Virus record (IMG/VR): IMGVR_UViG_3300020519_000004
Length of the DNA stretch: 64,000 bases
Direction: 5' to 3' (one strand)
Source: an uncultured virus (IMG/VR IMGVR_UViG_3300020519_000004)
Lineage: Duplodnaviria > Heunggongvirae > Uroviricota > Caudoviricetes
In this document: piece by piece, positions 22,355 through 57,341 of the stretch
Position numbering within the stretch: the stretch's first letter is position 1
Layout: each line of letters starts with the position of its first letter
Made by a program: the position numbers and the translations under genes
The notes under the pieces: generated by a model
Databases searched by the model: none
What the model was told of the DNA's origin: nothing
Seen by the model: the letters and a program-made list of their open reading frames with translations, nothing else

Positions 22355-22357
22355 TAG

Positions 22358-22431
22358 CGCCTCCGGTACGATTTGAACGTACGACCTAAACATTAGAAGT
22401 GTTTTGCTCTATCCAGCTGAGCTACAGAGGC
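22358..22431 (-). tRNA. tRNA-Arg(TCT)
   Basis: Full cloverleaf, loop CTTCTAA; ends G-CTA. Confidence 0.9.
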
Positions 22432-22883: not shown

Positions 22884-22884
22884 G

Positions 22885-24475: not shown

Positions 24476-24508
24476 ATTTTTTCTCCAATAGTGGTTTATG
24501 TGTTTTGG

Positions 24509-24748: not shown

Positions 24749-25046
24749 TATTAGTATTCCTTCTTGATATTACATTATCAATCATTTCGCCAAGAAACTT
24801 TGTATCCCTATACCCTTTATCATAAAGAATGGATATAATTGGTTTAGGATCAATTAAATTATAAGTAATTAATTGTAAATTAAAAATATCATTTAAAGTA
24901 TATACCCTATAACTATTCATGTCTCTTCGAGGTTCAGGATACTTATTGCTTTTTTCTCTATTAGCAATAGTTAAAGAAGAAACATTTAAAATTTGAGCAA
25001 TTTCAGATCTAGTAAACATTGGTTCTGCTGTTTTATTTTTGGCCAT
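24738..25046 (-). CDS. MerR-like HTH DNA-binding protein
   Basis: FTRSEIAQILNVSSLTIANRE...PRRDMNSYRVYT. Confidence 0.75.
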   Translation of the reverse strand: MAKNKTAEPMFTRSEIAQILNVSSLTIANREKSNKYPEPRRDMNSYRVYTLNDIFNLQLITYNLIDPKPIISILYDKGYRDTKFLGEMIDNVISRRNTNNVQ

Positions 25047-25107
25047 TTTTTAATACCTTTTTAAAAGTTTATATGACTCTATATAGTATCATTAAAAATA
25101 TGCAAAA

Positions 25108-26160
25108 TCAAATTAGATCAGAATTTTTTAAAGAATTAAGCGACTCAAGAAAACTCTTATCAATGCTAGCTGAACCCATTATAGGGGATTCTTCACCGTC
25201 TAAAAATGCGTGAATCATTTGACGATACGTTTGAGATTCATTATAGAGATCTGAAACATCAATAGATTCAGAAGGATCATCGCAACTAGTGTCTAGGTCA
25301 AAACGTTCTGGATCGTGTTCATAATAATACCCTCTGTCACTTTCAAAAGTTTGAGTTAAGGAAGGATTGGGCCAATTAAGATCTAAGACATTGTCTAAGT
25401 CTAGAGATTCCCAGTCTCTTAAAACACCTTGAATATGAGTTGGAGTCATTCCTCTATAATACCCGTGAGTATTAACATTTTGTCCTAAATTTGAATAACT
25501 AGTCATAAGCTCAACTGGTTTCTTTTGCCTAATAACATGATAAAAGTTTTCAGTTAAATCATGATTAAAGCCAGTATTCCAAATCCAATCATAAGCAGAA
25601 GCTATGACTCCAGACAAGTCTTTTGAATAGCCATCTACATCATTCATATTATCAAACATAGGCCTGCATAGTAGTCCATTAGTAAAGAAATTAGGAATTG
25701 GCGGCATGTAAATATTTTGCTCTGGAGAATTCAAAGAAGACTTCATAAAATACATTCGAACAGAATTACAAAAATATTTATTAGGATCATAAGTCATTAT
25801 ATACAACTGCCAAGGAATTGCAATTCTATAAACATGAATTGGAGTATCATCATTTAAGTTGCTGACGTTTTGAGGAGCATATTGAATTACCTGGTAAGAA
25901 GGAGGACGCTCAAAGACAACAACGCCATTAGAATGATACTTAATAGCTGGAGGAACAATATTGGAAACAAGTTGTTTTTTATTATTATCAATAATAGACT
26001 TGATAAATCCTTTATTAATATTTAACTGTTTATTTAAATTAAAATTATAATCAATATTATAAGAATTATAACTTAAAGAGATGTCTGCAGTTGGATTTTC
26101 GTCCCATATGCTGTGATTTTTTTCAAATGAAATGTAAGAATATTTAAATTTAGAAATCAT
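25108..26160 (-). CDS. Prokaryotic E2-like protein (E2 family D / PRTRC B-like) #3
   Basis: FERPP, IPW, PPIPNFFTNGLLC, WNTGFNHDL. Confidence 0.65.
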   Translation of the reverse strand: MISKFKYSYISFEKNHSIWDENPTADISLSYNSYNIDYNFNLNKQLNINKGFIKSIIDNNKKQLVSNIVPPAIKYHSNGVVVFERPPSYQVIQYAPQNVSNLNDDTPIHVYRIAIPWQLYIMTYDPNKYFCNSVRMYFMKSSLNSPEQNIYMPPIPNFFTNGLLCRPMFDNMNDVDGYSKDLSGVIASAYDWIWNTGFNHDLTENFYHVIRQKKPVELMTSYSNLGQNVNTHGYYRGMTPTHIQGVLRDWESLDLDNVLDLNWPNPSLTQTFESDRGYYYEHDPERFDLDTSCDDPSESIDVSDLYNESQTYRQMIHAFLDGEESPIMGSASIDKSFLESLNSLKNSDLI

Positions 26161-26161
26161 A

Positions 26162-27484
26162 TTAACTCTTTTCTTCTAAGGCAGAATTAGCATATTCTTT
26201 AACATTAACAATGTCATCGAAATTAGATTCTATTCTTTGAGATTCAGTTGAACCTTGAAGAATATTGTTTGCAATAACTTCTAATGAAGACTTTACAAAA
26301 GAAAGAAATAGGTCTTCATTTTCATCAACTAATTGTTTTGCTATATTTTCGCAAAGAGTATTAGAATAAATAGAAGAATGATTTTCAATTGATTCACGTG
26401 AAGTAAGTTCATTTTGATTGATTAAACCATTTATAATAAGTTCTTTTGAAAAAGAAATAACTATAGACCAATCAACGCCAGTTTTAACAGAACTAGAATT
26501 AGATAGATAAATAGAACGTATTAGAGATGTAATAACTTCTCTTTCACTCATTTGATCTTTAGCTCTTTCTTGAGAAAGAACATTTTCAATGGTGTAAGAT
26601 GCTCTATTTGTTCTTTTATATTCGCCAACAGCATGTAAAACTTCTGGCAAATCCATTAAACTCCAAGTAAGATATGCGTTTTTTATTTTTGTTGATTCTC
26701 TAGATCGATTGTTTTTAACATCTCTAATTTTAACTTTTGCTTTAGCAGCTCTAGCGGCTAAGTCTGGATCATGTAAAGGATCAGTTGTAAATTTACCAAT
26801 AGAAAAGTTGCAAATATTATAAATATGACCGCCACCTAAATCTAAATTCCAACCGCCATTAAAATAATCATTTATTAAATAATGATATACTTCACTAACA
26901 TTTTTAGGATTTATAGATTTTTGGGAAACTGCATCCATAAAATTAGCAGTAGTTTGACCTAAGCAAATGTCTCCAGTATGATGAAAGTTTGGAGTCCATG
27001 GAGTAATTAAATTATCTTGATAAGAAGATAATGGACCATCATTGTATAGCATTCTTAAAGAAGGAATAGGATTTTTTTCAGTGGGCATTGTCAAAATAGA
27101 AACAGTCCAGGGAATCCAAACTTCACAAAGAATAGAAGCTTCACCCTTAACCCTATTAGCCCTTAAAGAACTAAGTCTAACAGATGTTTTAAAAGGAGGA
27201 CGCTCAATTACGTATGTATCGTTTTCAATTCCCCTTATAGCAATTGGCATTGGTGCGCCTGTTAAATCAGTAATATAATTTGCGTCTTGCTGAACACTTC
27301 TTGCAAAATCGCGCCAAGAAAATTGATAGCTATTTCCAACAACTTTTAAAGTAACAGAATTTATACTTTTGTTAGAATCAGGAGTTGGATCCTTTGTTAC
27401 TCTCACTTGCCAAGCATCTAGTGCAACTAGATTGTTAGTATTTGATTCAGATTGCTTGAAGTACTTTATTGTTTTGAACGACAT
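26162..27484 (-). CDS. Prokaryotic E2-like protein #2
   Basis: IERPP, IPW, PWTPNFHHTGDICLG, FNGGWNLDL. Confidence 0.65.
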   Translation of the reverse strand: MSFKTIKYFKQSESNTNNLVALDAWQVRVTKDPTPDSNKSINSVTLKVVGNSYQFSWRDFARSVQQDANYITDLTGAPMPIAIRGIENDTYVIERPPFKTSVRLSSLRANRVKGEASILCEVWIPWTVSILTMPTEKNPIPSLRMLYNDGPLSSYQDNLITPWTPNFHHTGDICLGQTTANFMDAVSQKSINPKNVSEVYHYLINDYFNGGWNLDLGGGHIYNICNFSIGKFTTDPLHDPDLAARAAKAKVKIRDVKNNRSRESTKIKNAYLTWSLMDLPEVLHAVGEYKRTNRASYTIENVLSQERAKDQMSEREVITSLIRSIYLSNSSSVKTGVDWSIVISFSKELIINGLINQNELTSRESIENHSSIYSNTLCENIAKQLVDENEDLFLSFVKSSLEVIANNILQGSTESQRIESNFDDIVNVKEYANSALEEKS

Positions 27485-28421
27485 AAGAGTCCTTAGGAAG
27501 TAAATTAGAAATATAACTATTCTTTGATTTTATATTAACAGAAACAGCATTGGGATCAGAAACCGCATAAGAATAAGTAGTTTCTATATTATAATCTTCT
27601 TTATAAGAATCTAATAAATGATTAAGCTTAGTTAAAATTTCTTCGTACAAATTAGATTTATCTTTAGGAAAAGATATTGAATCATAACTTAAAGTAGAAA
27701 ATACAACATTAGTAGATGTGTTAACTATATCTACTTTGTAAATATTTTCCAAAGTTCTATATAAAACAGCGTCTACATTAAAAGAATTACCACTTGTTTT
27801 ATGGGTAAGAAGATTAGTGTAAATAACTTTTTGATCAGGTTGATAACCAGAGCAAGTAACTATAAAATGAGGAGAAGAAATACCAGAGGTAAACATACAA
27901 GGTGTTGGATTAACTGAACCCTTGGTAAATGCTTCATTGGAACAAGTAGAACCTTTAGCCAAGTTCGCATATTGATAATAATCTGAAACTTGTTGGCTAG
28001 AGGTCAAATAAGAACATTGACGGATAGAAGAAGTGTCTACCTTGATCTTAAAAAATAACTCACATTCAAAAGAAAACATTCTATACTGTGGATTGTAAGT
28101 GGTCCAATTAGGAATTTTACTATCAAAATTAGGAACTTGTCTAAAAATTTCTGAATTAGATTTTAATATGTATTGTTTAAATATTGTTTCAATATTATCA
28201 CTTACACTGCTAATTGTAGTGTTATCTGGAATATTGTAAATAATATTAAATGTTAAATCAGAAATTAAAGATGAATCAGATTCTTTTATTGCTACATAAG
28301 ATTGATATGTACTAACTGTATCCCAGTAACAATAGTTAATTGGAATATCTCCATTGAAAACAAAATTAACTTTAATACCACTAGTTAAAGTATGTTTAAA
28401 ATCTTCTCTACTCATTATCAT
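27447..28421 (-). CDS. Hypothetical protein
   Basis: ORF in Ubl operon. Confidence 0.55.
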   Translation of the reverse strand: MIMSREDFKHTLTSGIKVNFVFNGDIPINYCYWDTVSTYQSYVAIKESDSSLISDLTFNIIYNIPDNTTISSVSDNIETIFKQYILKSNSEIFRQVPNFDSKIPNWTTYNPQYRMFSFECELFFKIKVDTSSIRQCSYLTSSQQVSDYYQYANLAKGSTCSNEAFTKGSVNPTPCMFTSGISSPHFIVTCSGYQPDQKVIYTNLLTHKTSGNSFNVDAVLYRTLENIYKVDIVNTSTNVVFSTLSYDSISFPKDKSNLYEEILTKLNHLLDSYKEDYNIETTYSYAVSDPNAVSVNIKSKNSYISNLLPKDSYVVQNNKVLQAI

Positions 28422-29059
28422 CTCCAGGTATGCGTAGTATTATTTATAAGTTGAGTTTCTAAAATTTCTATTTTTTTTTCAAGAAACTTAGAATAGGATT
28501 GAGAAGATTCAACTTTGTCTAACAAAAACTTAATGTCGTTTTCTTGTTTAGCTAAATGATCTGTAGCTTGAACAAGTAACTGAGACATTGTAGAATAATT
28601 AACTTCCAATGACTTAATTACGTTAAAATCATTTTCTGAAAAATAAACAGGTTTAATCAAAAGGCATTTGCCAGCACCAGAACCAATTTGCATTATTCTA
28701 TTATTCTTTTTCATGTAAGAATAATAGGAGTTCATAACACTAGGTAAAACATTCGAATAAAAAGTTTTAAAAAAATGATTTTTAGAAAATGGATAAATCA
28801 TTTGAAAAACTTCTGGATATTCAGTTATCCCATAGTTAAGATGATCGTTTGTTAGTTCACCGTGTTCAGTAACATATGAAGCAACATACTCATCGTAAGT
28901 ATGATTAGCTGATGCAACATGCCTTAAATAATCAATCCGATCATTTATAATGCAGTTGTGCGTAAATTGATCCAAAGGCAAAAGTTCATTTGTATTATTT
29001 AAAATACTATCAATAATTTCATTTGCTTGGGTAAGATCTGTAATGCTATTTATAATCAT
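28418..29059 (-). CDS. Hypothetical protein with C-terminal coiled coil
   Basis: ORF. Confidence 0.55.
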   Translation of the reverse strand: MIINSITDLTQANEIIDSILNNTNELLPLDQFTHNCIINDRIDYLRHVASANHTYDEYVASYVTEHGELTNDHLNYGITEYPEVFQMIYPFSKNHFFKTFYSNVLPSVMNSYYSYMKKNNRIMQIGSGAGKCLLIKPVYFSENDFNVIKSLEVNYSTMSQLLVQATDHLAKQENDIKFLLDKVESSQSYSKFLEKKIEILETQLINNTTHTWR

Positions 29060-29331
29060 AAAACCTCAATTGAATGGAATTCTAATGTGTTATTTTTCAT
29101 GAAAAACATCAAAGAAGAAGAAAGCAAATGAATAGATTGCATTTCTGGATACAAAGATTTAACTACTGGATATATAATACGCAGTGAAGATAACGTATTA
29201 ACCAACTCTAAAGAATTGGGATCAACAAATAAAACAGATACTGTATTATTCGGTGGTGTCAGGAGACTTGGAATCAACCACGTCTTCAATGGCTGAGGCA
29301 AGTCTTGGATTTTGGTCTGCCACGATTCCAT
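29056..29331 (-). CDS. Hypothetical protein
   Basis: ORF, start uncertain. Confidence 0.4.
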   Translation of the reverse strand: MESWQTKIQDLPQPLKTWLIPSLLTPPNNTVSVLFVDPNSLELVNTLSSLRIIYPVVKSLYPEMQSIHLLSSSLMFFMKNNTLEFHSIEVL

Positions 29332-29635
29332 TAGCGCCTTCCTTCATAATGTTAAACATCTTCTGTCGTGCATCATGGACAGAATCATGAAAGTTTCGTT
29401 TTGCCTCATCAGAAGCAAAGTTTAATTGACCCAATAAAGCTTCAATAAAAACAGCTTGTTCAGCAAATCCGGTAGCTAAGGTAGCAATCTGTTGTTCGTA
29501 AGATTCCATAACTTTATCTAATTTTTCAATTTTATTATCGAATTGAGCAGCCATTGCTAAAACAATATCATTAACTGTTTTTCTCAAAAGCTCAATATCT
29601 GTATAGTCTGGAATACTATTTTGTTCATCGCTCAT
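29246..29635 (-). CDS. Hypothetical coiled-coil protein
   Basis: ATGA-coupled ORF. Confidence 0.55.
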   Translation of the reverse strand: MSDEQNSIPDYTDIELLRKTVNDIVLAMAAQFDNKIEKLDKVMESYEQQIATLATGFAEQAVFIEALLGQLNFASDEAKRNFHDSVHDARQKMFNIMKEGANGIVADQNPRLASAIEDVVDSKSPDTTE

Positions 29636-30264
29636 ACTTCATACCAATCTGTTTTGTTGGTTACATGGGAAGACAAAGCAAGATCAACTAGATAGGATAT
29701 AGAATGTAATTCTTGCCTTGTAACCTTAATGCTATCAACAGAAATTGGTGATTTCATATCAGGAAGAAACGCACCACTATCAGTCTTCTTAGCGTTAAAA
29801 TGCCCAGTCTTAAAAACAAAAGCATCTTGGTCAAAAGTTTCATTATTTTGCCAATGATGAATTTTAAATATTCTACTAATCGGCTTACCTTGAACTTCAG
29901 CTCCACCATAGGAAACAAAACCTTCATCAGTAAGAACACCAGTCTTAGCATTAGCCTTATAAGCAAGCTTAGCAGTTCCGTTAATAACTGAACGAAGCCA
30001 TGCTGCAAAGTCTACAGCATCAACAAATACATGAGTGTTGCCAGCTAGCTTTCCATCGTTAGATATTTTACCAATATCAATTCTAAATTTCATTCCAGCA
30101 AACCATGGTCTTATCGAAAGAAAACCGCTTTGGGTTTTAGAACGAAACCATTTTTTATAAAGATCTTTTTCATAAGATTTTTCAGTTGATAACGGAGTAT
30201 CTGGTTTAAAATTTTCCTCAAACATGCCTTCATCAAACAATTGTTCTTGCTGTGCGTTGCTCAT
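29632..30264 (-). CDS. Hypothetical protein
   Basis: AAGGAG SD. Confidence 0.6.
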   Translation of the reverse strand: MSNAQQEQLFDEGMFEENFKPDTPLSTEKSYEKDLYKKWFRSKTQSGFLSIRPWFAGMKFRIDIGKISNDGKLAGNTHVFVDAVDFAAWLRSVINGTAKLAYKANAKTGVLTDEGFVSYGGAEVQGKPISRIFKIHHWQNNETFDQDAFVFKTGHFNAKKTDSGAFLPDMKSPISVDSIKVTRQELHSISYLVDLALSSHVTNKTDWYEV

Positions 30265-30273
30265 ATTAGCTCC

Positions 30274-31905
30274 TTATTTCGTAGTCCACTGAAGTGATTT
30301 ATTAGTTGTTTTAGAAGCAGTAAGTGGACTTCCGCTTACTACTAGTTTAGCATCATTAAACTGATCTGTCGAAGCCCAATCCCATTGTTCGATTGCAGTA
30401 GCATACAAATCTTGAATCATTTGACGATTCTTATTCCACAATATATTACGAATAGTAGGTGCAGTTTTAACAATGTCTTGAGTTGTTATAGTTCGCATTT
30501 CACCAAGAGCAATATTAAACTTAGTCTCTTTAATTAAAGATTTAATTTCAGCACCAGTAAAATACTGAGTTGCTTCAGATAATTGTTCATAGTCAAATGC
30601 ATGATCAGTGTTTATACTATCAAGATAAATTTTAATAATATCGATTCTTTCCATGAAAGATGGAAGACCAACAAACATTATTTTATCAAATCGATCTGCA
30701 CGAAGCATTTCTGGACGAAGGTTTTCTAGCTGATTAGCAGCACACATTAAGAAAACATTTTTTGGAAGTTCTTGTAAGCCAGTTAAGAATTCTCCGTGAA
30801 CACGATCAGTAGTGCCACCATCTACATGGGAAGAACTTGCACCACCAGATAGGTCTCGACCAAACTCGTCAATCCAAACACACAATGGAGCCATTACGCC
30901 AATTTGTTTAAATACATTACGCATATTAGATTCTGATTGGCCAACAAAAGAATTCATAACTTGGCTAACACCGGTGCGCGCTAAGTCTAACCCAAGAGCA
31001 CTTGCAGTAGCTTCACAAATAGCAGACTTACCAGTACCTGGAACACCCACCATAAGCATTCGAGCAATTGGTGAAACACCAAATTCTTTAGCCTTTTCTG
31101 GGTTATGCCAAAGGACAGCATTACGATTGATTATTTGCTTGATGTTATCAAGACCACCAATTTGATCAAATGTTATAGTCGGCTTTTTAATTTCCAAAAT
31201 ACCATTACGTTTAATATCAGCCATTTTCATATTATAAATAACTTCTGGATCAACCGTTCCAGTGTCAACAACGGAAGTTAAGCAAAGATTAATGAAAGAA
31301 GACTCAGTTAAACCTAAACCGGCTTTAGCAATTTGTTGTTTTTTGGATGAATCAAAGACCAAAGAATCTGTAGAAGTTTCAATATGTGCAAGCACTGTAG
31401 AAAGTTCATCTAAATTCGGAAGTTCAAATTCCATATTTGCAAACAAGTGCAAATAGTCTTCCGGGCATTCGAATGGAGATATAAATATAAACTGAATTGG
31501 CATTAAATCATTATCATCAGACCAAAAAGATTGACGATAAGAATACTGTAATGAAGAAATTAGTCCAGCGTACATCGAAAGAAGTTCATCTGGTTTTACA
31601 AAAACTGGATAAAGAAATGTAGACTTTTTAGAAACAAATCCAGTTTTATCTGTAACCATATATTGATAAGCTACAGTAAAATCATAAGTAACTGTTTCAA
31701 TAGTTTCATCTGGGTTATTGCGATTAGGTATTTCAACTATAATGGATTTCCATTGGCCATCAATAAATTTACTAAAACCCTTATTGCTGTCAATAGTAAA
31801 ATAATCTCGATTATCAAAATCAGAAATCGTTTCAATAGAACGATACACATCCGAACTTTTAAGCCAGATAGAAGGTATACCCAGTTTTATTTGAGAAAAA
31901 AGCAT
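30274..31905 (-). CDS. AAA+ ATPase (Ycf46/CDC48-like, degenerate N-terminal module plus one intact AAA)
   Basis: IGGLD, GVPGTGKS, WIDE, AANQ..PEMLRADRFD, FTGAEI. Confidence 0.9.
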   Translation of the reverse strand: MLFSQIKLGIPSIWLKSSDVYRSIETISDFDNRDYFTIDSNKGFSKFIDGQWKSIIVEIPNRNNPDETIETVTYDFTVAYQYMVTDKTGFVSKKSTFLYPVFVKPDELLSMYAGLISSLQYSYRQSFWSDDNDLMPIQFIFISPFECPEDYLHLFANMEFELPNLDELSTVLAHIETSTDSLVFDSSKKQQIAKAGLGLTESSFINLCLTSVVDTGTVDPEVIYNMKMADIKRNGILEIKKPTITFDQIGGLDNIKQIINRNAVLWHNPEKAKEFGVSPIARMLMVGVPGTGKSAICEATASALGLDLARTGVSQVMNSFVGQSESNMRNVFKQIGVMAPLCVWIDEFGRDLSGGASSSHVDGGTTDRVHGEFLTGLQELPKNVFLMCAANQLENLRPEMLRADRFDKIMFVGLPSFMERIDIIKIYLDSINTDHAFDYEQLSEATQYFTGAEIKSLIKETKFNIALGEMRTITTQDIVKTAPTIRNILWNKNRQMIQDLYATAIEQWDWASTDQFNDAKLVVSGSPLTASKTTNKSLQWTTK

Positions 31906-31934
31906 TAATTTACCCCTATGTAAAAATAGAATAG

Positions 31935-31980
31935 AATAAATGTGGGGGAGAATACCCGATCAAAGTACTCTCCCCCACAA
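31935..31980 (-). terminator. Intrinsic terminator/attenuator hairpin after Ubl gene
   Basis: TGTGGGGGAGAGTAC / GTATTCTCCCCCACA then T-rich tail. Confidence 0.75.
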
Positions 31981-31996
31981 ACTTTAAGACTGTATA

Positions 31997-32254
31997 TCAG
32001 CCCTTTTCGCCTGCACGGCGGTGAAACTCTACGTTGTCTCCTGGTTGGATAACATAGTTTTCATCAAGCTTATCTTTACCTTTGTAAGCTACTGCATCTG
32101 TTGGGATTCCCCAAAGCTTACCGAATTGCTCACGTGCATCTTTAATCGACTTACCCGCAATTGGGGTAGGTTGATTGTAAACGCCGAATCTAACGTTTGC
32201 TACACCAGAAGCGGACTTCTGGGCTGCTGAACCACTTTCATTTATATTGCTCAT
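31997..32254 (-). CDS. Prokaryotic ubiquitin-like protein
   Basis: 85 aa beta-grasp pattern (..IQPGDNVEF) ending AGEKG, like PRTRC protein C; adjacent to ThiF. Confidence 0.8.
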   Translation of the reverse strand: MSNINESGSAAQKSASGVANVRFGVYNQPTPIAGKSIKDAREQFGKLWGIPTDAVAYKGKDKLDENYVIQPGDNVEFHRRAGEKG

Positions 32255-32287
32255 GATATGTTTATCCTTATGTTTAGTTTGTTTTTA

Positions 32288-33043
32288 TTACACTGAGACT
32301 TTGGTTTGAACTACACGCCTATCGTAAGGCTGAGCCATTCCTAATCCCAAATCAAAATAGATCTCAGTTACTTCTGGATCTTTTCCTTCAACAATAATAT
32401 GATTGATGCGTCCTAAGATAATAGAAGCAACAGCCATATTGGTAGCAAGAAGTTGAGTGCCACCATCTATCTCAGCCCGCTCTTGACAAGATAGTTCACC
32501 TGGATTTTTATCTGGTGGATTTTCATATTCAGGATGGTATACTACTGGATGGTCTGTAACATCAACGCCATCACGACGTTGATAATGATAAATAGATCCA
32601 AATAAAGCATCATCATTACCACCAGTAAAGACATCGATGTTAGCTATATTGGACGCAGCATCAAACAATATTTTACGAGCAGCAAAGTTATCTACTACAG
32701 CAAGAACAACATCTCCGTCAGTTAAAAGATCAGAAGCTTTCATCTTAGGAGAATCATCATCTGTTACTCCTTGAAAATCATCTCCAACAATCCATTTAGC
32801 AACTGGAATAAAAGTAGTCTTATTAAATTGCTGAGTAAGCTCTAAAGCTTTAACAGAAGCCTTGTTGCCCATCTTCGTAAAATGCTGACGCTCTTTATTT
32901 TTTTCTTCATAGTTGTCACCATCAACAATAATCAATGCTGAGTTAGGATACTTCCATTCCAGAAGACGAGCAACGCCTTCAGCAAGCCAAGTACCAATAC
33001 CGCCAGCACCAACAATTACGAATCTTTTTTCTTTAGACTCCAT
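32288..33043 (-). CDS. E1/ThiF-family adenylyltransferase
   Basis: VGAGGIG, DGD..EEKNKERQ, VDNFAARK, SC candidate catalytic Cys; start refined to MESKEK. Confidence 0.9.
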   Translation of the reverse strand: MESKEKRFVIVGAGGIGTWLAEGVARLLEWKYPNSALIIVDGDNYEEKNKERQHFTKMGNKASVKALELTQQFNKTTFIPVAKWIVGDDFQGVTDDDSPKMKASDLLTDGDVVLAVVDNFAARKILFDAASNIANIDVFTGGNDDALFGSIYHYQRRDGVDVTDHPVVYHPEYENPPDKNPGELSCQERAEIDGGTQLLATNMAVASIILGRINHIIVEGKDPEVTEIYFDLGLGMAQPYDRRVVQTKVSV

Positions 33044-34709
33044 AGTTACCCCAACCTTCCATTGAGTAGTCACTTGAATTTTTGTATGCTTGCCAACTTG
33101 TGCAACCATATAGTGGTTCTTTTGGAAGCTCAGCTTCAACAGCAAATTTTATAATAGCTTCCCGGTATTCTGGACAAGACGGAAGATAATAATGCTCACA
33201 AGATTCACATACAGAATGAGAATCATACATTTTAATATTTTGAGCAGAAATTGCTTCATCAAAATCTTGAATATCGTCAGGCAATACAGTTACCGGACAA
33301 TTACAAAGTGCACCATTTTCAGTTAAAGGAGCTTCGCAACAAAGAGTTATGTTTGACCATTTGTCTATCAAGTCTTCGTTAAATACAGATTCATTTTCTA
33401 AAATATCATCAGATCCGAAAAAAGATGGAGATCTATCGTCTAAGGGTGTGCTAACTCTTGAATCAGATGGTTTTATTAACATGATGAAATCTTCACCCTG
33501 TTTTCCATCTGTAGCCCAAAGATAATATGGTACAAAAGTAGAAAAATTGCGTTCCATATTATAAATATCAATTGAATTAATGATATCTTCAATATCATTA
33601 TTCATAGGAACAATTGCAATATCACAAGCTGGACAACCACTTCCTTGATAAATTTCAGTCTTAAACAAAGCAATTAAACAAGAAGGACAAATCATAGAAG
33701 AATTACCAGATATATCAATCTCAGCAGCAATGGCTCCAGGATAAGTATTTTTATCAAATGGAATTACTTGACTTCTTTTTTCTAATTTCCTACTGCCACC
33801 AGGTGTGTACGCCGGAGGAGTTGTAGCCGGTTGATTGAGTGGTATTATACCCGTACCCGCTGTAGTAACCCCCGCCAGCTGCGGCTGCGGGGGGAGTGCT
33901 TTTTTTACTTTATCGCTCCAAGCTACAACCTCAGGATCTGGTTCCTTTTGAAGAATAAAATCCTCAAACACATCCTTAGCAGTAAGAGTGTAAGATGTTC
34001 CACCCATTTGTAATTCTAAGTGATATTGAGTTGCGCCGTTTGCAACAGACTTCTGCCAACCATAAGTAATATGCAAACCATCAAAGTCTGCTTGATCATC
34101 ATGATCTGTACCAGAAGCATAAGCTGGCATTTCAGGATGACTGTGGACTGAACCAACAATCATCACATGATCTTCTTTAAGATCTACAATGGAATCAGGA
34201 TCATACTTGCAATGCGTAGAAGTATTAGTTTGTTCTGGAACTAATATACCCCAACCTTCAGGTCCTTCTTTTGTAGTATCGTAAGTAAGAAGGACGATTG
34301 ATTCAGAACCATGCTTAGCGTGAATTAATCTAAAGAACTCATCAAGCTTATCAATAATGACATGGGGAATTGCTGGCATTGTATAGTGTGCTTCTTCTTT
34401 AAACGAAGCAAGTTCTGGTCCAAAGTCTTCTTCAACTTCAGATACTGCTCGACCAACAAAATTATTTACAACTTTAAACATCTTAGATTTGTATGTTGTA
34501 TTTTGTGTAGTCGCAGAAGGAGTTCCGGGTTTATAAGTTGTAGTGCTATTTGTAGTAGTTCCTTTATGGCCAATCAAATAATAAATTTGAAAACCTAAAG
34601 ATTCTATTTGTTCACAAATATTAACATTGTTTGCAAGAAAGCACGGAGCTCCATTAGGAAGCCAAAAATAATTTAAATCATTTAATGTAATCTGTGTATC
34701 GTTAGACAT
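33033..34709 (-). CDS. JAB/MPN+ metallopeptidase with Cys-rich C-terminal extension
   Basis: E...HSHPEMPAYASGTDHDD JAMM motif. Confidence 0.85.
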   Translation of the reverse strand: MSNDTQITLNDLNYFWLPNGAPCFLANNVNICEQIESLGFQIYYLIGHKGTTTNSTTTYKPGTPSATTQNTTYKSKMFKVVNNFVGRAVSEVEEDFGPELASFKEEAHYTMPAIPHVIIDKLDEFFRLIHAKHGSESIVLLTYDTTKEGPEGWGILVPEQTNTSTHCKYDPDSIVDLKEDHVMIVGSVHSHPEMPAYASGTDHDDQADFDGLHITYGWQKSVANGATQYHLELQMGGTSYTLTAKDVFEDFILQKEPDPEVVAWSDKVKKALPPQPQLAGVTTAGTGIIPLNQPATTPPAYTPGGSRKLEKRSQVIPFDKNTYPGAIAAEIDISGNSSMICPSCLIALFKTEIYQGSGCPACDIAIVPMNNDIEDIINSIDIYNMERNFSTFVPYYLWATDGKQGEDFIMLIKPSDSRVSTPLDDRSPSFFGSDDILENESVFNEDLIDKWSNITLCCEAPLTENGALCNCPVTVLPDDIQDFDEAISAQNIKMYDSHSVCESCEHYYLPSCPEYREAIIKFAVEAELPKEPLYGCTSWQAYKNSSDYSMEGWGNYGV

Positions 34710-34748
34710 AAGTACTCCTATAAGTAGATTCTTTTATTTTATATATAA

Positions 34749-36656
34749 TTAAAACGGTTCAGAAATATTATCTAAATTGGTGGAACCAAAAGTAGAAAAA
34801 GCAATTCCTTCAATTACAGCTTTATCATAGCGTTCTTTGGTAAGCATAGTGTGACTAAAAGGATTATCTGTAATCTTTAATGTTTCAGCCATGTTTTCAT
34901 CATTAATATTTTTTAAATCTTCATTCATACAGTTGTAACATAAATGAGTTAAGCAAGTGTTAATTACTTCATTTGTATTTGGATTATTTACCTGTAGGTA
35001 AAATTGTTTAGGAAGTTCAGTAATTGGATTGCTCCAAATAGAAGCATAATGTCCTGTTGGACAAAGATTATGTTTTGTTGAACATTGAGGACAAAAAGTT
35101 ACATTATCTACCAAAATAGTTTTATTATGATCATCATCGGAATTTAATGATATAACTTTCGGTGATGGAAAAATATGAGACCATTTCTCTCCAACAAATA
35201 CTGTAGAGCTACATCCATAACAATTAGATATCTTAGATCCATCTGGAATAACATTAGTTTCTGGATCATAATTTGAAGCAGCGTACGAAGGAAGACACGT
35301 CTTACATAATTCAAGTCCTTCAGAACTCATATAAATACCAGGAATTGGCACGTCTATATTGTTTTCAGTTTTAGCCCAATATTCGGTTTGGCAATTTTTA
35401 CATTCTTTAACAATAGCATGTTCTATGTTAATGTGTATGCCATCATTGTCCATCCATTTAACTTTAGGATTATCAAGTGGAATATACTCATCAGTATTTT
35501 CACAATGGGCTACATTTTCTTCAAAGCAACTTTGACAATAAGTAGTTCCATTGAAATCAGAATAACTATCATTTTCATGCATACTGCAAGTATTTCCGGT
35601 GATAGGGCATGATACAGTAATGTAATCTTCTTGCTCTTCTTCATCGTCTACATCAAATCCACCAAACTTTTGAATTTGTGTATTTAAATTAATCCTATGT
35701 TCTTTTGCAACATCCATAGGATTGTAGGCGACATCTAAAAGAGAAGAAGCATTATGACTTCTAGCAATCCAATTAACAACTTTTTCAGAGTCTAATTTTA
35801 AATCCGAACGAGAAAGAAGATTAATTGGTTTTGGCCTGTAGTTATCAGTGTAATAAGCTTGGTAGTCTCCAAGCATAGCCATTTGAATAGTTAATGGAAT
35901 ACCGTTATCATCATGGCTACCTTGATTATCTTGATCTCGAACTAATATAGGAATCCAATTATCTTTATCTAAAACCCAAGCATATCCTTCTTCAGAAGTT
36001 TTATCTTGCCATGTATTCGGATTCCAAGTATAACCAGGCATATTTCTTTCTTGATAAAATCTTGGTCCATCAGTTTCGCTCATGTTAGCGTCATTGTATG
36101 TTTCAACACCGGAGCAGCGTTCTGCAAACTTAACTATTTTTTCATTAAAGGGAAGTTGATTCCAACTATCTCGATGATATAAACACTGCCAGCCTACACC
36201 ATTTCCACGATACCCTTTGCAGTTTGTATTGGGAAGGTTAAGGTGGTACAGCTGTTGATCAGGTGATGTAATTGGATATGGACTATAAAACATTCTAGCA
36301 CCATACAAATTTCCATCAACTAAATCGCCAATCCAAATACGATATGGCTGAGCAACTGTGTATGTTACGGCATCACGGTCGCCTTCGTTTGCACCCCAGT
36401 TTATATGATTAATCTGCGGCTCATGCTGAAAAGTAATTTGAGTATGGTTACCAGCACTACGAATAGCTAATACACCAGTGCCCGACAATGGCATTAAGCC
36501 AGTATCAAACATAGCATAAGAAGAAAAGTTCCTGTAGAAAGAAACAATATCTTTATCTGTTACGTGATCTAAGTTAAATGATTTAACAGTAGACCGCATT
36601 ACAAGTGCGCCATCTTGATTTGTAATTGAATAGTTTATATTATTAGTGGAAGACAT
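34749..36656 (-). CDS. Prokaryotic E2-like protein #1 with multiple Zn-ribbons
   Basis: QLYHLNLPNTN...GWQCL; many CxxC in C-terminal half; first gene of cassette. Confidence 0.6.
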   Translation of the reverse strand: MSSTNNINYSITNQDGALVMRSTVKSFNLDHVTDKDIVSFYRNFSSYAMFDTGLMPLSGTGVLAIRSAGNHTQITFQHEPQINHINWGANEGDRDAVTYTVAQPYRIWIGDLVDGNLYGARMFYSPYPITSPDQQLYHLNLPNTNCKGYRGNGVGWQCLYHRDSWNQLPFNEKIVKFAERCSGVETYNDANMSETDGPRFYQERNMPGYTWNPNTWQDKTSEEGYAWVLDKDNWIPILVRDQDNQGSHDDNGIPLTIQMAMLGDYQAYYTDNYRPKPINLLSRSDLKLDSEKVVNWIARSHNASSLLDVAYNPMDVAKEHRINLNTQIQKFGGFDVDDEEEQEDYITVSCPITGNTCSMHENDSYSDFNGTTYCQSCFEENVAHCENTDEYIPLDNPKVKWMDNDGIHINIEHAIVKECKNCQTEYWAKTENNIDVPIPGIYMSSEGLELCKTCLPSYAASNYDPETNVIPDGSKISNCYGCSSTVFVGEKWSHIFPSPKVISLNSDDDHNKTILVDNVTFCPQCSTKHNLCPTGHYASIWSNPITELPKQFYLQVNNPNTNEVINTCLTHLCYNCMNEDLKNINDENMAETLKITDNPFSHTMLTKERYDKAVIEGIAFSTFGSTNLDNISEPF

Positions 36657-38617: not shown

Positions 38618-38953
38618 TTAAAACAAAGAAACCAATTTAGAACAGGTTTTTAAATTAAGAGTAGATATATCATTATCTAATATTTTTTTAAATATGTAAT
38701 TACGTTCTTCTTCAGTCGTGTTTCCCCAAACACCATGATACTGATAGGTTAATGCACTTTTTAAACAATCAGCATTTACAGAACATTTCTTACATATTAA
38801 TTTGGCTACTGCTATGTCATCTGATTTTGGAGAACCAAAAAAAGTAGATGTAGCTATGCCGGTGCAAGCAGCTTTTTGACGCCATGCATTATCTTCAGAA
38901 TTAAAGATATCAAAATCTTCAATCGACCTGACTCCTATTGGTTTCTTCGCCAT
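38618..38953 (-). CDS. whiB: WhiB-family transcription factor
   Basis: WRQKAAC...FF...AKLICKKCSVNADCL...GVWG.TTEEER. Confidence 0.9.
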   Translation of the reverse strand: MAKKPIGVRSIEDFDIFNSEDNAWRQKAACTGIATSTFFGSPKSDDIAVAKLICKKCSVNADCLKSALTYQYHGVWGNTTEEERNYIFKKILDNDISTLNLKTCSKLVSLF

Positions 38954-40661: not shown

Positions 40662-40766
40662 TTATTTGTTTTGTTTAATGTCAGCAACTAATACAAGAAA
40701 TAAGCTAACAGCTATTAGACCTACAGGTATTCCAATCACTAACCTAATTATATCAAACCAATTCAT
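40662..40766 (-). CDS. 34-aa single-TM protein (not in ORF track)
   Basis: MNWFDIIRLVIGIPVGLIAVSLFLVLVADIKQNK; GAGG SD. Confidence 0.5.
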   Translation of the reverse strand: MNWFDIIRLVIGIPVGLIAVSLFLVLVADIKQNK

Positions 40767-41082
40767 TGTTAACCTCTAGTTCAAGTGTGGCTTTACGCTT
40801 ACGTTGCAATCTTCTAGCTACATTAATTCCAGCATAACGAGGAAGACTGTATCCAGCAAGGTAACGTTCTTCTTCATTTTCGCCACCCCAAATACCAAAT
40901 TCAGTATTTTCTCTAGCGTAATCTTTACATAAATCTAAAACAGGACAAATAGCACAAAGTGTTTTAGCTCTTTGTTCACGACGATCTCTGGCTTGTGGAC
41001 GCTCAGCATCTTTAGGATAAAACAAATATGAATATCCTTTACAAGCTGCTTGTTGAGACCAAGAACCAATAGATACTCTCAT
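40753..41082 (-). CDS. whiB: WhiB-family transcription factor
   Basis: WSQQAACKG...AKTLCAICPVLDLC...GIWGGENEEER. Confidence 0.92.
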   Translation of the reverse strand: MRVSIGSWSQQAACKGYSYLFYPKDAERPQARDRREQRAKTLCAICPVLDLCKDYARENTEFGIWGGENEEERYLAGYSLPRYAGINVARRLQRKRKATLELEVNNELV

Positions 41083-51693: not shown

Positions 51694-52443
51694 CTAGAAT
51701 GGCGAATTGTAAACCGGTATAATATTCTTATGATGAGTTTCATATTCGATACCGAATGCTTCATAGTGTGCAACAGCATGCCAATGTGCTAAGAAGATCT
51801 TAACAGCATACCGTTGAGCTTGAGCATCGATCCTTTCTTGTGGAAGTTTTCCAGATAAATAAATATCTTTATCTCTTTGAATAGCTTTATCTTTTGAGCT
51901 AGCAGAGTTTAAAGTATCTTTAGCAAGGTCTGAATATTCGCCTTGCTCATTAAGTTCAATTCGACGCTTGCGTTCTTCTAGATACAACTTACCATAAAAA
52001 CAACTGTCTTTAGCAGAGTATTTAACAAAGTTTTTACCTAAATCAATACAAACTTCTTTTAAGTTATTATTATATGTAAACTTTTGTTTACTTGGTTGGT
52101 TGGGAACCAAACCAGCATAGCTCCATAGATGCTCTGGAGTACGAGATTTAATTATATCAATATAGCTAAGTAAACGAGTAGCTGTAATTGGGCCAACTCC
52201 AAGATTGGAAATTGCCCATTTGCCAGTCATTGAAGAACGGCAAAAAGATTCTAAAGAAGTATCCATTTGGGATTCTAGTTCCAAAATAAGATCTTGGAAA
52301 TACATCAAGGTTTCATCTTGATCAACTAAGTTAGTTAATTCGTTCCGTTGATTGCGAATTTCCCAGTAAACTTTAGATAAGGTTGAAGCTGTTTCTTTAT
52401 TTTTGGTTAGAGGGATAGAAATAAGTCTATCAGTGGTAGTCAT
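51694..52443 (-). CDS. IS110/Nop-domain protein without nuclease domain (TasA-like)
   Basis: Coiled coil, W..LGVGPITA..LL.YID, LWSYAGLVP, FYG..Y, GKLP..RIDAQAQRYAVKIFLAH; no DEDD RuvC N-terminus. Confidence 0.65.
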   Translation of the reverse strand: MTTTDRLISIPLTKNKETASTLSKVYWEIRNQRNELTNLVDQDETLMYFQDLILELESQMDTSLESFCRSSMTGKWAISNLGVGPITATRLLSYIDIIKSRTPEHLWSYAGLVPNQPSKQKFTYNNNLKEVCIDLGKNFVKYSAKDSCFYGKLYLEERKRRIELNEQGEYSDLAKDTLNSASSKDKAIQRDKDIYLSGKLPQERIDAQAQRYAVKIFLAHWHAVAHYEAFGIEYETHHKNIIPVYNSPF

Positions 52444-53985: not shown

Positions 53986-54297
53986 TTATTGTGAATATAG
54001 ATCATCTTGGTAATACCTTGGAAATTGTACATTTTTAATTTTAAGAATTTCCTGATAGTATAAATGCAAAGTTTGCCAAGATAAAATATACTTGTGGAGA
54101 ACATTGTCAAGACTCTTGAGTTGTTCTTCAGGTGAAAGTTGAAAGTCAACTGAATGAACTATGGTACTGACTTCAGCCATACTACTTTCTAAGTTTGAAA
54201 TAGCTTGATAAAATTCAGCTTGAGCTGTCATGTAGAATTTAGTCCTACCTTCTTCTGTATTAAAATTAAATTTAGAAGGTTCGAGTGGAGAATCCAT
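53986..54297 (-). CDS. Hypothetical protein
   Basis: AAGGA SD. Confidence 0.55.
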   Translation of the reverse strand: MDSPLEPSKFNFNTEEGRTKFYMTAQAEFYQAISNLESSMAEVSTIVHSVDFQLSPEEQLKSLDNVLHKYILSWQTLHLYYQEILKIKNVQFPRYYQDDLYSQ

Positions 54298-54315
54298 TTA
54301 AGTTCCTTTAATATA

Positions 54316-54506
54316 AAGAAAAAACTTGATGGCTTTGAAGTCCCTAGAGTAAAAATTAAAGCGCTAATCGGAAAAGCGCCAATGTCATTCGGGGGGTAAA
54401 CCAATGACATTTAATGAGCTTCTGGAGGGACTATATGGCTCACTTTTTAATTACCCTAGAGACATCAAAACCATCAAGCTATTGATGATACTGATATTTT
54501 ATATGT
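54316..54506 (-). ncRNA. Cloverleaf antisense sRNA (element D) with three seed loops
   Basis: 28-bp closing stem (3 G.U only on minus strand), three hairpins, U tail, own promoter; loop 1 complementary to 2932-2949. Confidence 0.8.
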
Positions 54507-54512
54507 GTTTTA

Positions 54513-54541
54513 ATTGTACTAGCTAAAATTGGGTAAGTCAA
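54513..54541 (-). promoter_or_regulatory. Sigma-A/70-type promoter TTGACT-N17-TACAAT
   Basis: -35 at 54536-41, -10 at 54513-18, 17-nt spacer. Confidence 0.8.
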
Positions 54542-54542
54542 A

Positions 54543-54558
54543 TGTTCCACGTGGAACA
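54543..54558. promoter_or_regulatory. parS: parS centromere-like palindrome TGTTCCACGTGGAACA
   Basis: Perfect 16-bp match to the chromosomal parS consensus, extends to an 18-bp palindrome; intergenic. Confidence 0.8.
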
Positions 54559-54785
54559 TATTTATTTTTGTAAGGTTTAAGTAAATATAAAGTATAAAAT
54601 TAAATACCAGCAAAGACTATGCTTTTTATGCACAGCCTAAATATGTCTGATCAAAGTCATACGATAGTAATTTTAAACGTTCAGCAGGACGCTCGTTCGT
54701 AATCTCCTTACACTGTTCACTGAATGTTTTCTGCTTCAGTCCCTAAGGCAAACGATTCCATCATATACTTTATATTTAAAGTAAC

Positions 54786-54836
54786 AAAAAAAAATATGGG
54801 GGCCCAGTATCACCGAAGTGACACCAGACCCCCATA
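54786..54836 (-). terminator. Intrinsic terminator
   Basis: 19-bp stem, UUCG tetraloop, 9-U tail. Confidence 0.9.
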
Positions 54837-54839
54837 AGG

Positions 54840-57341
54840 TTAACTTGCTTTAGCTGAGCTAAATGTTATTGGACTAAGCTTTCCACAATAACGCTGATAA
54901 TCCAAAGGATCATCAAAGCTATGGTGTGTTCCAGCATCGTCAATAACTTCCCACTGTTGAGTGCGAACTTGATTGATAGTGATAGTTCCGTCATCATTAT
55001 GACTAGCAGTTATACGAGTAGCAATACCATAGAATTGAAGCGCACGCTCCAAATATGGAAAGACTAATCGGTTCATAACAAGCTGGTCAGTAATCTTGCC
55101 ACTGGAAGTCTTATGCTTCAAAGAAGCAGAATACAAACCAAGAACAAGATCATGACGATCACTTTCACACTCATAAGAATCAATCTTATCGACAATAGTT
55201 TGATACAGGTTATCCCAACCTGAACGATCCACATGTCCTCCGTGTTCAGAGGTCATCTGGCTATTGACATTATAGATTTCCATACGGAATTTACGCAAGA
55301 CTGGCAACGCATGAAAGCTCATACGATAACCAATCTTATCTATAAATTCAGATGGACGAGCATTCTCTTGAGCCCAAGTGTGTACACGCTTAGCATATGC
55401 AAGATAATAGCTCTTGCATAGATCATTGAGCTGAGTAATAACACCTTCGTATTTCTCAACCCATTCGCCCTTCTTAAGATAACCATCGAAACGACGGCTA
55501 TCCCAAAGAGCACGATCTACAGGAAGACCAGACTGAATAACTTGACGCACCATAGTAGTTGCGTCTTCGTCAATACAGTCACGATCATCGGCTATAGCAG
55601 TTTGAATAAATCCGTCAATAGCATCCTCGAGACTGCAAAGTTGCTGTTCTCGATGAGTGCCAAAGACAGATGAATGTAACATAGAAGCGTTGACGAAACG
55701 ACCAACGCTGCCAGTAGCCATAGATGTACGGATGTCAGTTAAGACATCCTCACGAGTATACACTTCGCCAGTACGCTTAGGCGGGGGATTGATTTGACTA
55801 GGCAAACCAATGTAGCTAACTTGTTCTTCAGCCAAAGCTTCAGACAAACGCTGTACCCAACCACGCCCAGATACTTTAGGAAATGTAATCTTCTCACCTG
55901 TAGAAGTAAGCCAATGCGGATGCCAGGCTCCTTCTACATATTCAAAGATTGAATACTCACCAATTCCGTTTGGTGAACGGGCAACGATTACAGACTTGTG
56001 ACCGTCAAGATCTCCGCCTTCAAACTCACGATAAAAGAGTTTAAAGAAGTCGTCTTGATCACAGCCACCATGAGATGCATACATCTCAATCCAGTCTAGA
56101 TCGTTTACTACGTGAACTTCGAGTTCACTTAGGCGTTGAATAGTTCCTTGTTCAACTTCAATTTCATAACCAGCCATCCGAGCCAAAGACTCTGAGATGA
56201 TCTGTTCATAAACAGCACAAGGTATAGGAATTTTAGATTTCAACGGCTTAGCATGACTAGTAGCCAGCGTCTCAAACATCCACGGGGATTCAGTTACCTT
56301 CATTCCCATAGCAACCCAACGATAACCCACATATTGCATGCGGGCTTGGGCTTCCTCGTCTTCAGGATCAACCTTATCCTTCCAAGTACGCTGATAGATG
56401 TTCTTCCAATTGCTCAATAGCTTGCCATTGAGCGCTTCTTGAAACATCTTTTCGTACTCTTCGGAAAGCCAATATTCCATTTCGCTTTTAGTAAAAAGCT
56501 GTGGAAGATTGATCATAGTTTGATCATCTGTGTGAACACGAGATTTAGCATTTTGTGGTTCTGCTTGGAACATCCAACCTTCGTCATAAACAATTTCTGA
56601 TTTAAGATTGCCGTGCCAAGAAAGCACGTCAACCCCTTCAGGAAGTTTATCCGAAACAAAGCAATTGCCTTTAAGAAAGCCATCAGGGCCGATAATACGA
56701 CCATTGAAAGCTTTAGTATTAAGCAAGTCTTTGATAGCATTTTGACGCATACGAGGATTGTAATAATACTCGTTAGGATCATTAGTTGATCCAGCTTCAA
56801 ATGCAGGTAAGTTGTCTACGCCGGCTTTAATCAGCCGAGGATGAATTACAAACCCACCATCAAGAAGTCTGTCTACTTCTTCCTCAGTGAACTCTTGGCC
56901 TTCAAACGCATAACGACTAAACTCGTCAGCGTCAGCGTATTGAACAAAGATTTCACCAAGTGCAAAGACTGCATTGATAAGAGTAGGTCGGTGAAACGCT
57001 TTCAACCGCTTAGCAGTTTTACCGCCACCTTTAACCTTAAAGCCCATATCTGTAAAGATAGATAACCACTCAGTGTTGTTGCCAACCTGAGTGATTACAA
57101 TCTTAGTCTTATCCACCAAAGCATATTGAATGCTTGGGTGATTGATGATAGCTTGAATTTGATTAAATTCGAATTCGTTCTTGGGCAGTGGAAGAGCCCC
57201 AACACGAAAGTAATCTTCTCCAGAATGGGTAAGAGCTTGGCGCATAGCACCAATCTCATAGAACCCATACTGATAGTTATTAACGCTACGAAGCGGGCCA
57301 TTGGAATATCCAACAGCCCGCATTTTTGGTGTGATTGGCAT
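54840..57341 (-). CDS. Candidate single-chain two-barrel RNA polymerase (RdRP/YonO-like)
   Basis: LKG, GGCDQDD, ARSP, VGRFVN, EDAIDG motifs reminiscent of cellular RdRP; 833 aa; strong SD. Confidence 0.45.
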   Translation of the reverse strand: MPITPKMRAVGYSNGPLRSVNNYQYGFYEIGAMRQALTHSGEDYFRVGALPLPKNEFEFNQIQAIINHPSIQYALVDKTKIVITQVGNNTEWLSIFTDMGFKVKGGGKTAKRLKAFHRPTLINAVFALGEIFVQYADADEFSRYAFEGQEFTEEEVDRLLDGGFVIHPRLIKAGVDNLPAFEAGSTNDPNEYYYNPRMRQNAIKDLLNTKAFNGRIIGPDGFLKGNCFVSDKLPEGVDVLSWHGNLKSEIVYDEGWMFQAEPQNAKSRVHTDDQTMINLPQLFTKSEMEYWLSEEYEKMFQEALNGKLLSNWKNIYQRTWKDKVDPEDEEAQARMQYVGYRWVAMGMKVTESPWMFETLATSHAKPLKSKIPIPCAVYEQIISESLARMAGYEIEVEQGTIQRLSELEVHVVNDLDWIEMYASHGGCDQDDFFKLFYREFEGGDLDGHKSVIVARSPNGIGEYSIFEYVEGAWHPHWLTSTGEKITFPKVSGRGWVQRLSEALAEEQVSYIGLPSQINPPPKRTGEVYTREDVLTDIRTSMATGSVGRFVNASMLHSSVFGTHREQQLCSLEDAIDGFIQTAIADDRDCIDEDATTMVRQVIQSGLPVDRALWDSRRFDGYLKKGEWVEKYEGVITQLNDLCKSYYLAYAKRVHTWAQENARPSEFIDKIGYRMSFHALPVLRKFRMEIYNVNSQMTSEHGGHVDRSGWDNLYQTIVDKIDSYECESDRHDLVLGLYSASLKHKTSSGKITDQLVMNRLVFPYLERALQFYGIATRITASHNDDGTITINQVRTQQWEVIDDAGTHHSFDDPLDYQRYCGKLSPITFSSAKAS

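Follow-up and report, generated by a model that had tools for sequence, protein, structure and literature searches.

A chromosomal-type parS site, kept by selection, beside a small-RNA promoter in an uncultured freshwater phage

The window examined here, a stretch of 64,000 nucleotides from an uncultured virus (IMG/VR record IMGVR_UViG_3300020519_000004), carries one perfect parS site of the chromosomal type, and this site lies flush against the -35 element of a promoter that appears to serve a structured small RNA (sRNA). By every test that a computer can apply, the sequence is parS, and it is kept by selection. We lean toward a joint reading of these observations: the element would be a functional parS under selection, with host ParB as its likely binder, and the bound protein would dampen transcription of the sRNA.

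Results

Genomic setting of the site

Between about 8 kb and 63 kb of the window, every long ORF is read from the minus strand. The window has a GC content of about 34% and six tRNA genes dispersed along its length; among the proteins recognized by Pfam are an SSB, a helicase, a UDG-like protein, and an S8 protease. The closest record found, G001 (48.7 kb; 23% complete according to CheckV), is 100% identical to the window over 54200-54900. For related records with lengths of 203-211 kb, the rated completeness is 96-100%; the window thus represents part of an uncultured phage genome of about 200 kb. The DNA runs that contain its sequence are lake or freshwater metagenomes. A search of the GenBank phage collection matched neither the region nor the 833-aa protein encoded next to it, at the DNA or the protein level.

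Upstream of the cassette that is the subject of this report lies the gene for this 833-aa protein (54840-57341, minus strand), which is conserved in all 33 related loci described below. The protein has no sequence match in Pfam, PHROG, or PDB. A protein atlas places it, at 0.94, next to a cluster in which 15% of the members carry PF05183 (RdRP); it is possibly a YonO/RdRP-like single-subunit RNA polymerase, which we offer as a lead only. The gene ends in an intrinsic terminator (54795-54836, minus strand; a 19-bp stem and then T9). Between this terminator and parS is a conserved noncoding stretch, region A (about 54575-54795, minus strand), that is closed by a conserved hairpin, GGCUGUGC-N7-GCAUAGUC, with a U-rich tail (54615-54637, minus strand). 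Region A folds weakly overall (z -2.0). An adaptor-flanked cDNA contig of 134 nt from an RNA library falls on it (54650-54783), and region A may be another small RNA or a leader.

The related record G005 (267,766 bp) has two full-length paralogs of the 833-aa gene (1570-4059 and 210231-212762), whose products are 55% and 63% identical to that of the window; parS and the sRNA follow the second copy only. The two copies are 208.7 kb apart, about one genome length in this phage family, and G005 may combine two related phages in one chimeric or over-length assembly.

Three further features of the window deserve mention. The segment 85-18778 holds a tailoring-type cluster: a sulfotransferase, an FkbM methyltransferase, a carbamoyltransferase, an AurF-like N-oxygenase, a ferredoxin, a SAM methyltransferase, and four 2OG-Fe(II) oxygenases. 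Possible substrates of these enzymes are a surface glycan, a metabolite, or DNA; if phage DNA were the substrate, this would bear on ParB binding, as host ParB might not bind. In 19297-36656, a proteasome-subunit-like ORF, an AAA ATPase, and ThiF-like and JAB-domain proteins are grouped and suggest that the phage carries a ubiquitin/Pup-like module for tagging or degradation. Finally, an IS110-family transposase-like ORF (51694-52443, minus strand; PHROG 4285, E = 3e-22) sits inside the early/replication region.

The parS sequence and its expectation by chance

An extended 18-bp palindrome, ATGTTCCACGTGGAACAT, was read directly from the sequence at 54542-54559; like parS itself, it is assigned to no strand. 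The 16-mer at its center, TGTTCCACGTGGAACA (54543-54558), is a perfect palindrome that agrees at 16 of 16 positions with TGTTNCACGTGNAACA, the chromosomal parS consensus, in which positions 5 and 12 are degenerate. A sequence-only reading of this DNA had claimed a perfect chromosomal-type parS at this very place, and the comparison confirms it.

Could such a match arise by chance? Given the base composition, a window of this kind is expected to hold 6.7e-6 copies of the exact 16-mer and 2.2e-4 matches to the consensus. No other perfect palindrome of 16 or 18 bp occurs in the window; for palindromes of any sequence, the expectations are 2.0 and 0.55, respectively, and so palindromy by itself is unremarkable, the identity with parS being the striking part. 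When as many as three mismatches were allowed, parS was still the sole match in the window (0.13 expected; at least one match in 12 of 100 shuffles). Half-sites of parS were not enriched there (14 found vs. 10.8 ± 3.0 expected). On cellular chromosomes, parS sites are usually clustered. The window, G001, G002, G005, and G012 each have a single copy and no clustered copies. Judged from its sequence, the 16-mer is a selected chromosomal-type parS, and we discount a chance palindrome.

A palindrome might instead act as an RNA hairpin, e.g., as the intrinsic terminator of a plus-strand transcript, and a scan does flag a terminator-like element on the plus strand, where a 7-bp stem is followed by ATTTATTTTT. 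However, the T-rich tail is found only on the plus strand of the window, being absent from that side in G002 and in G005/G012, and we rejected the terminator reading. The minus strand, for its part, continues into the -35 element rather than into a U run, and no plus-strand gene ends at parS. Moreover, the sequence itself is conserved, beyond its pairing, and no compensatory changes were seen. We give an RNA hairpin next to no chance.

Conservation of parS among related phages

With the 833-aa neighbor gene as the query, 33 loci were recovered from IMG/VR. Four of them (L166, L168, L170, and L171) have a perfect parS 100-290 bp downstream of this gene. The sequence of one locus (L167) ends before the parS region, and another (L169, from record G011) has the sRNA some 950 bp further on, without parS; in the other 27, neither parS nor the intergenic cassette occurs within 1.5 kb. 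parS is absent throughout the near-complete or complete relatives G004, G006, and G010. These complete relatives without the site, and the presence of one parS per genome, are points against the reading that we favor.

An alignment of the small protein encoded downstream of the sRNA, used as a second query, led to 5 viral and 12 metagenome loci, which together with the window amount to 15 distinct sRNA-bearing sequences. A perfect consensus parS is present in 13 of these 15. The exceptions are L217, with a parS-like sequence, ATGTTTCACGTAGAACAT, that has one core mismatch (CACGTA), and G011, which has no parS and has an HNH-like ORF inserted beside the spot. This ORF (L200 956-1357, minus strand, in G011) occupies the very position that the parS-like site has in the sister sequence L217 (128-145), and G011 shows a split inverted repeat, GGTTCCAC-N11-TGGAACC, in place of parS. 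It looks as if the insertion destroyed the site.

Twelve distinct sequences of the main clade were aligned. All 14 fixed positions of parS are invariant in them, and the only variable columns are position 5 (C in nine sequences, T in three) and position 12 (G in ten, A in two); the chance that both variable columns would fall on the degenerate positions is 1/120. The flanks, by contrast, diverge: 26 of 30 columns vary in the upstream flank (mean pairwise identity 0.73), as do 14 of the 17 columns of the promoter spacer (0.62). A Fisher test on variable columns (0/14 vs. 40/47) yields p = 5e-9, which is to be taken as descriptive, as the columns share a phylogeny. The parS variants encountered are TGTTCCACGTGGAACA, TGTTTCACGTGGAACA, and TGTTTCACGTGAAACA; a fourth, TGTTCCACGTGAAACA, departs only at position 12 and accompanies the sRNA homolog of G005/G012. 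L213 and L214 lack the outer A/T pair of the 18-mer, and the conserved unit is therefore the 16-bp parS. Conservation in relatives had been named in advance as a check on the site, and conservation is what was found. The pattern at parS, as read from these alignments, is that of purifying selection, not drift.

These same comparisons bear on whether the site is a mere passenger, i.e., a piece of host DNA that was captured with the sRNA cassette, has not yet eroded, and is functionless in the phage. parS, the sRNA, and the gene of about 100 aa do form an accessory cassette, absent from 27 of the 33 neighbor-gene loci, and one lineage has let the site decay. But the 14 fixed positions stayed invariant in 12 sequences while pairwise identity in the adjacent noncoding DNA fell to 62-73%, and among 13 sequences there are four consensus-compatible variants and zero consensus-breaking changes. 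We find a passenger very hard to credit.

The adjacent promoter and its geometry

The best promoter-like site in the region is TTGACT-17 nt-TACAAT, with 10 of 12 consensus matches. Its -35 hexamer, TTGACT (54536-54541, minus strand; the plus strand reads AGTCAA), begins 1 nt past the parS 16-mer; the promoter scan put the -10 hexamer, TACAAT, at 54513-54518 (minus strand), and the 17-nt spacer fills 54519-54535 (minus strand). Just past the -10 is a conserved block, ACATATAAAATATCAG (54491-54506, minus strand), and a start near 54506 is predicted from the position of the -10. As TTGACT is the minus-strand reading of the -35, the promoter belongs to that strand and fires toward lower coordinates. 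The earlier statement that parS abuts the -35 box thus holds, with the 18-mer directly beside the hexamer; the hexamer is where it was said to be, but on the minus strand, a point that the sequence-only reading had left unsaid.

Within the main clade, 10 sequences have the start of the -35 1 nt past the 16-mer, and the other 2 have it 2 nt past. It takes the forms TTGACT, TTGACA, TTGATT, and TTGCGT at the same place, and the -10 reads TACAAT, TAAACT, or TATAAT. The spacer is 17 nt long in 12 of 12 aligned sequences, although most of its columns vary. A conserved promoter of the sigma-70/SigA type, serving the sRNA, is supported by these sequence comparisons.

The spacing between parS and promoter had been expected to be conserved in relatives, and this is true of part of the family: parS is flush with the -35 in 12 of the 15 distinct sRNA-bearing sequences, the spacing differs in L217 (where the 16-mer ends 27 nt before the -35) and in G005/G012, and the site is lost in G011. 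In G005/G012, no sigma-70-like promoter was found beside parS, and about 22 nt separate parS from the sRNA stem; any promoter there would consequently have to overlap parS. Because L217 and G011 keep the promoter and the sRNA with the site displaced and degraded, or lost, parS is dispensable for making the sRNA. The flush spacing of the main clade may simply be inherited, since a 1-nt linker leaves little room for variation.

How firmly does this arrangement speak for regulation? One could hold that parS is a working loading site for host ParB whose contact with the promoter has no regulatory meaning, the site occupying a quiet, untranscribed niche; parS would persist in the gap between terminator and promoter because ParB is not knocked off there by RNA polymerase, such gaps being the sole DNA that the polymerase leaves unswept in a genome transcribed almost entirely from one strand. 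Indeed, every lineage has parS between a terminator (or gene end) and a promoter: it comes after the hairpin of region A in the window and the main clade, between the terminator of the 833-aa gene and the sRNA in G005, and between an ORF end and the promoter in L217. The distance to the promoter differs by lineage (1-2 nt, 27 nt, or overlapping), and G011 keeps the sRNA and its promoter without parS. On the other hand, parS stays flush with the -35 in the main clade while its distance to the conserved hairpin block upstream shifts from 32 to 52 nt, a protein at -37 to -52 would hardly be neutral for the promoter, and ParB of P. aeruginosa is described as a repressor of parS-adjacent promoters (PMC5521831). 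We regard such a niche without regulation as possible but doubtful.

Four metatranscriptome runs were compared with 54000-55000. Six low-depth contig pieces fell on this interval, none of them over the sRNA core. One RNA-library piece (54500-54665) spans the promoter and parS and is indistinguishable from DNA carry-over. A low-depth RNA-library contig has a C>T at 54547, i.e., at parS position 5.

The small RNA and its candidate targets

The structured core of the sRNA occupies 54318-54480 (minus strand); a stem of about 30 bp closes the structure, which also has three hairpins and a U run. The predicted minimum free energy is -70 kcal/mol (z -8.4), a stability reached by 0 of 200 shuffles. 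In an RNAalifold consensus of 13 sequences, there are 52 pairs, 20 of them with compensatory double changes, and the loops CCCUCC, CCCCCC, and UUCCGAUU are invariant or nearly so. On the strength of this covariation, we hold that an sRNA of about 165-190 nt is real. Rfam returned nothing for it at the gathering thresholds, and only chance-level matches at E up to 10.

A 103-aa ORF (53986-54297, minus strand) comes immediately after the sRNA as part of the same accessory cassette, and its homologs follow the sRNA in every sRNA-bearing lineage. A covariance model built from two sequences recovered the sRNA in G001, G002, and G011. This model missed the homolog in G005/G012 on the right strand, and a three-way MAFFT alignment misaligned it; the homology of the G005/G012 sRNA rests on synteny, folding, and shared motifs seen by eye.

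Two of the loops have candidate partners within the window. Loop 1 (54421-54438, minus strand) could pair in trans with 2932-2949 (minus strand), which comprises the SD and the ATG of a holin-like ORF (2678-2935; 85 aa, with two hydrophobic helices, i.e., two-TM). The complementarity extends over 18 nt, of which 17 are Watson-Crick pairs and one is G.U, and the predicted duplex energy of -33.1 kcal/mol compares with a mean of -8.6 (sd 4.1) over 171 start regions, placing it about 6 sd beyond. Loop 3 pairs with AAUCGGAAAG, just upstream of the SD of the 833-aa gene (-20.1 kcal/mol). In G005/G012, no comparable loop-1 target was found; a second site matching at 14 or more of 17 positions was absent. 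The sRNA had earlier been labeled an anti-holin sRNA; the 18-nt complementarity of loop 1 to the holin-like SD/ATG lends that label some support.

Phage and host as sources of ParB

Does the phage encode a protein that could bind the site? Pfam was run on 87 ORFs of the window, all of at least 80 aa, out of 109 listed; the other 22 are mostly opposite-strand overlaps of longer ORFs. None of the 87 matches the ParB families or ParA, which for this scanned set bears out the earlier remark that no parB is visible in the window. Six-frame searches for ParB_N, HTH_ParB, and AAA_31 (ParA) covered five related records each and seven records in total: all three families in G001, G002, and G005, ParB_N only in G003 and G004, and HTH_ParB and AAA_31 only in G011 and G012. 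They returned 0 matches to these families in the related records, including the complete, parS-bearing G005; G002 is 69% complete and reaches about 144 kb on the far side of parS. The same partition-family searches were positive in 11-14 of 14 control genomes. Within the sequences searched, parS on the phage is thus an orphan site with no recognizable cognate ParB or ParA. Since no phage ParB/ParA was recognized, recruitment of host ParB is the best reading. The sequence-only reading had left the choice between host ParB and the phage's own; the former now appears likely, and the latter was not found.

The host side was approached through a sample of 201 Actinomycetota genomes, of which 93 have at least one perfect parS (the reversed control pattern gave 0). 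All four phage parS variants occur as chromosomal sites in this sample. Two Actinomycetota genomes, G075 and G199, each have two copies of ATGTTCCACGTGGAACA(T) between gidB and parA-parB, and in G199 dnaA is near this pair. Each of these four copies contains the exact 16-mer of the phage, and three of them the full 18-mer. These pairs (L226 6292-6365 in G075; L227 1960-2016 in G199) lie 45-60 nt upstream of the parA start. By their position, they are likely in the parAB promoter region and would offer a cellular parallel to a promoter-side parS.

The window also has two WhiB genes (38618-38953 and 40753-41082, recognized by Pfam), which point to an actinobacterial host: whiB serves as a marker of actinophages, and several of their freshwater clades have multiple copies (PMC10914622). 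A WhiB search of genome contigs gave an Acidimicrobiia MAG at 42% identity and, besides it, two short matches only, which justified sampling at the level of the phylum; this MAG has three clustered parS sites. The host is probably actinobacterial, which is consistent with the WhiB genes and with the identical 18-mers at gidB-parAB loci.

These results also bear on whether the palindrome is the operator of a phage regulator not recognizable as ParB, its likeness to parS being due to coincidence or mimicry. Operators or activator sites typically take such a place next to a -35; most of the phage's ORFs in the window are without annotation; and the window and its closest records cover the genome in part (G001 23%, G002 69%). 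Yet a 16/16 match to the consensus, with variation only at the degenerate parS positions, would be unexpected for an unrelated operator; the complete, parS-bearing G005 is without ParB_N or HTH_ParB; and the identical 18-mer is the gidB-parA site in Actinomycetota. Such an operator strikes us as quite improbable.

Discussion

Comparison with known systems

To our knowledge, a host-type parS on a phage without ParB is experimentally documented for essentially one system, that of phi29. phi29 has five host-type parS sites, which are used through Spo0J, so that the phage exploits the segregation machinery of its host (PMC2731898). The present phage resembles phi29 and Nf, both virulent Bacillus phages, in having a chromosomal-type parS and no ParB; the use of host ParB is known for phi29 and inferred here. 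It differs in having one site rather than five and in the flush position of that site next to an sRNA promoter. The host in the present case is probably actinobacterial and not known to sporulate, and entrapment in the spore is thus not an obvious use for the site.

The parS of P. aeruginosa has the form TGTTCCACGTGGAACA. A word search for this 16-mer in PMC5521831 gave 0 occurrences. As that study describes it, ParB at the intergenic, high-affinity parS3 and parS4 represses the adjacent PA0011 and PA0013 promoters (PMC5521831). Those sites differ from the phage's in being chromosomal, near oriC, and accompanied by parAB in cis; the phage is without parAB.

KorB of the IncP plasmid RK2 supplies another likeness, a palindromic site for a ParB-family protein beside a core promoter. 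KorB operators (OB) can sit a few bp upstream of core promoters, and the CTP clamp formed by KorB silences them (PMC13768133). In contrast to the phage case, KorB and its clamp-locking partners, KorA and TrbA, are plasmid-encoded, and OB has the sequence TTTAGCSGCTAAA, not that of parS. A KorB-type system in the phage finds no counterpart in our data: no ParB-family protein turned up in the related records searched, and the phage site is parS, not OB; the likeness is confined to the geometry.

The closest cellular counterparts are the gidB-parA sites of G075 and G199, which share the 16-mer and, like the phage copy, occupy noncoding DNA just upstream of a transcription unit. They are paired and stand beside parA-parB, whereas the phage copy is single, an orphan, and beside an sRNA gene. 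A Druantia preprint that mentions parS proved not to be relevant, the term there being a label for an engineered P1 parS only. In open-access full text, we came upon neither a parS on freshwater actinophages nor a phage sRNA under the control of ParB. What is new here is the host group, a single parS fused to the promoter of a structured sRNA, and clean comparative evidence; an orphan host-type parS as such is known.

A proposed role for the site

Under the joint reading that we favor, ParB dimers would nucleate on parS, bind CTP, close to clamps, and load onto the phage DNA. The site appears to sit in a short untranscribed gap, after two terminator-like hairpins and before the next promoter. 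With a start predicted about 7 nt past the -10, parS would be centered near -44.5, and ParB bound there would compete with RNA polymerase (on the side of the alpha-CTD and sigma region 4), lowering transcription of the sRNA. The parts of this proposal are not equally firm. That ParB binds the phage parS at all is a prediction from sequence that we make with good confidence; that this binding is coupled to regulation of the sRNA promoter is a tentative proposition, which we would not yet bet on. In our closing interpretation, interference of ParB with the promoter and a quiet niche for ParB loading are weighed alike, as equally possible.

To what end would the phage load ParB? Our leading guess, by analogy with phi29, is that loading would help to position the phage genome, or to pass it on, in hosts that divide slowly. 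The sequence-only reading had proposed segregation or SMC loading as the purpose, and had further suggested that ParB occupancy may act as a copy-number or cell-cycle sensor, which is speculation. A version of it would have host ParB-CTP as the sensor: loading on the orphan parS, at times of plentiful ParB-CTP, would hold the sRNA promoter down and thereby gate the timing of lysis, or a choice between active infection and a quiescent carrier state, through sRNA loops that are antisense to the ribosome-binding sites of the holin-like and 833-aa genes. We consider this version rather unlikely, and our search of open-access full text found no described precedent for a ParB-gated phage riboregulator. 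If it were true, lysis timing would be wired to the chromosome-segregation or growth state of the host.

The present case extends parS of the phi29 type to uncultured freshwater actinophages of about 200 kb, with a signal of selection that is unusually clean. It also presents a compact module: parS, a consensus-like promoter, and a structured sRNA whose antisense match to a holin-like gene is strong. Should ParB occupancy tune the promoter, a universal segregation protein would be linked to the timing of phage gene expression. If it does not, large phages of the lytic type would still recruit ParB clamps, which bears on the positioning, compaction, or inheritance of their DNA in hosts of slow growth.
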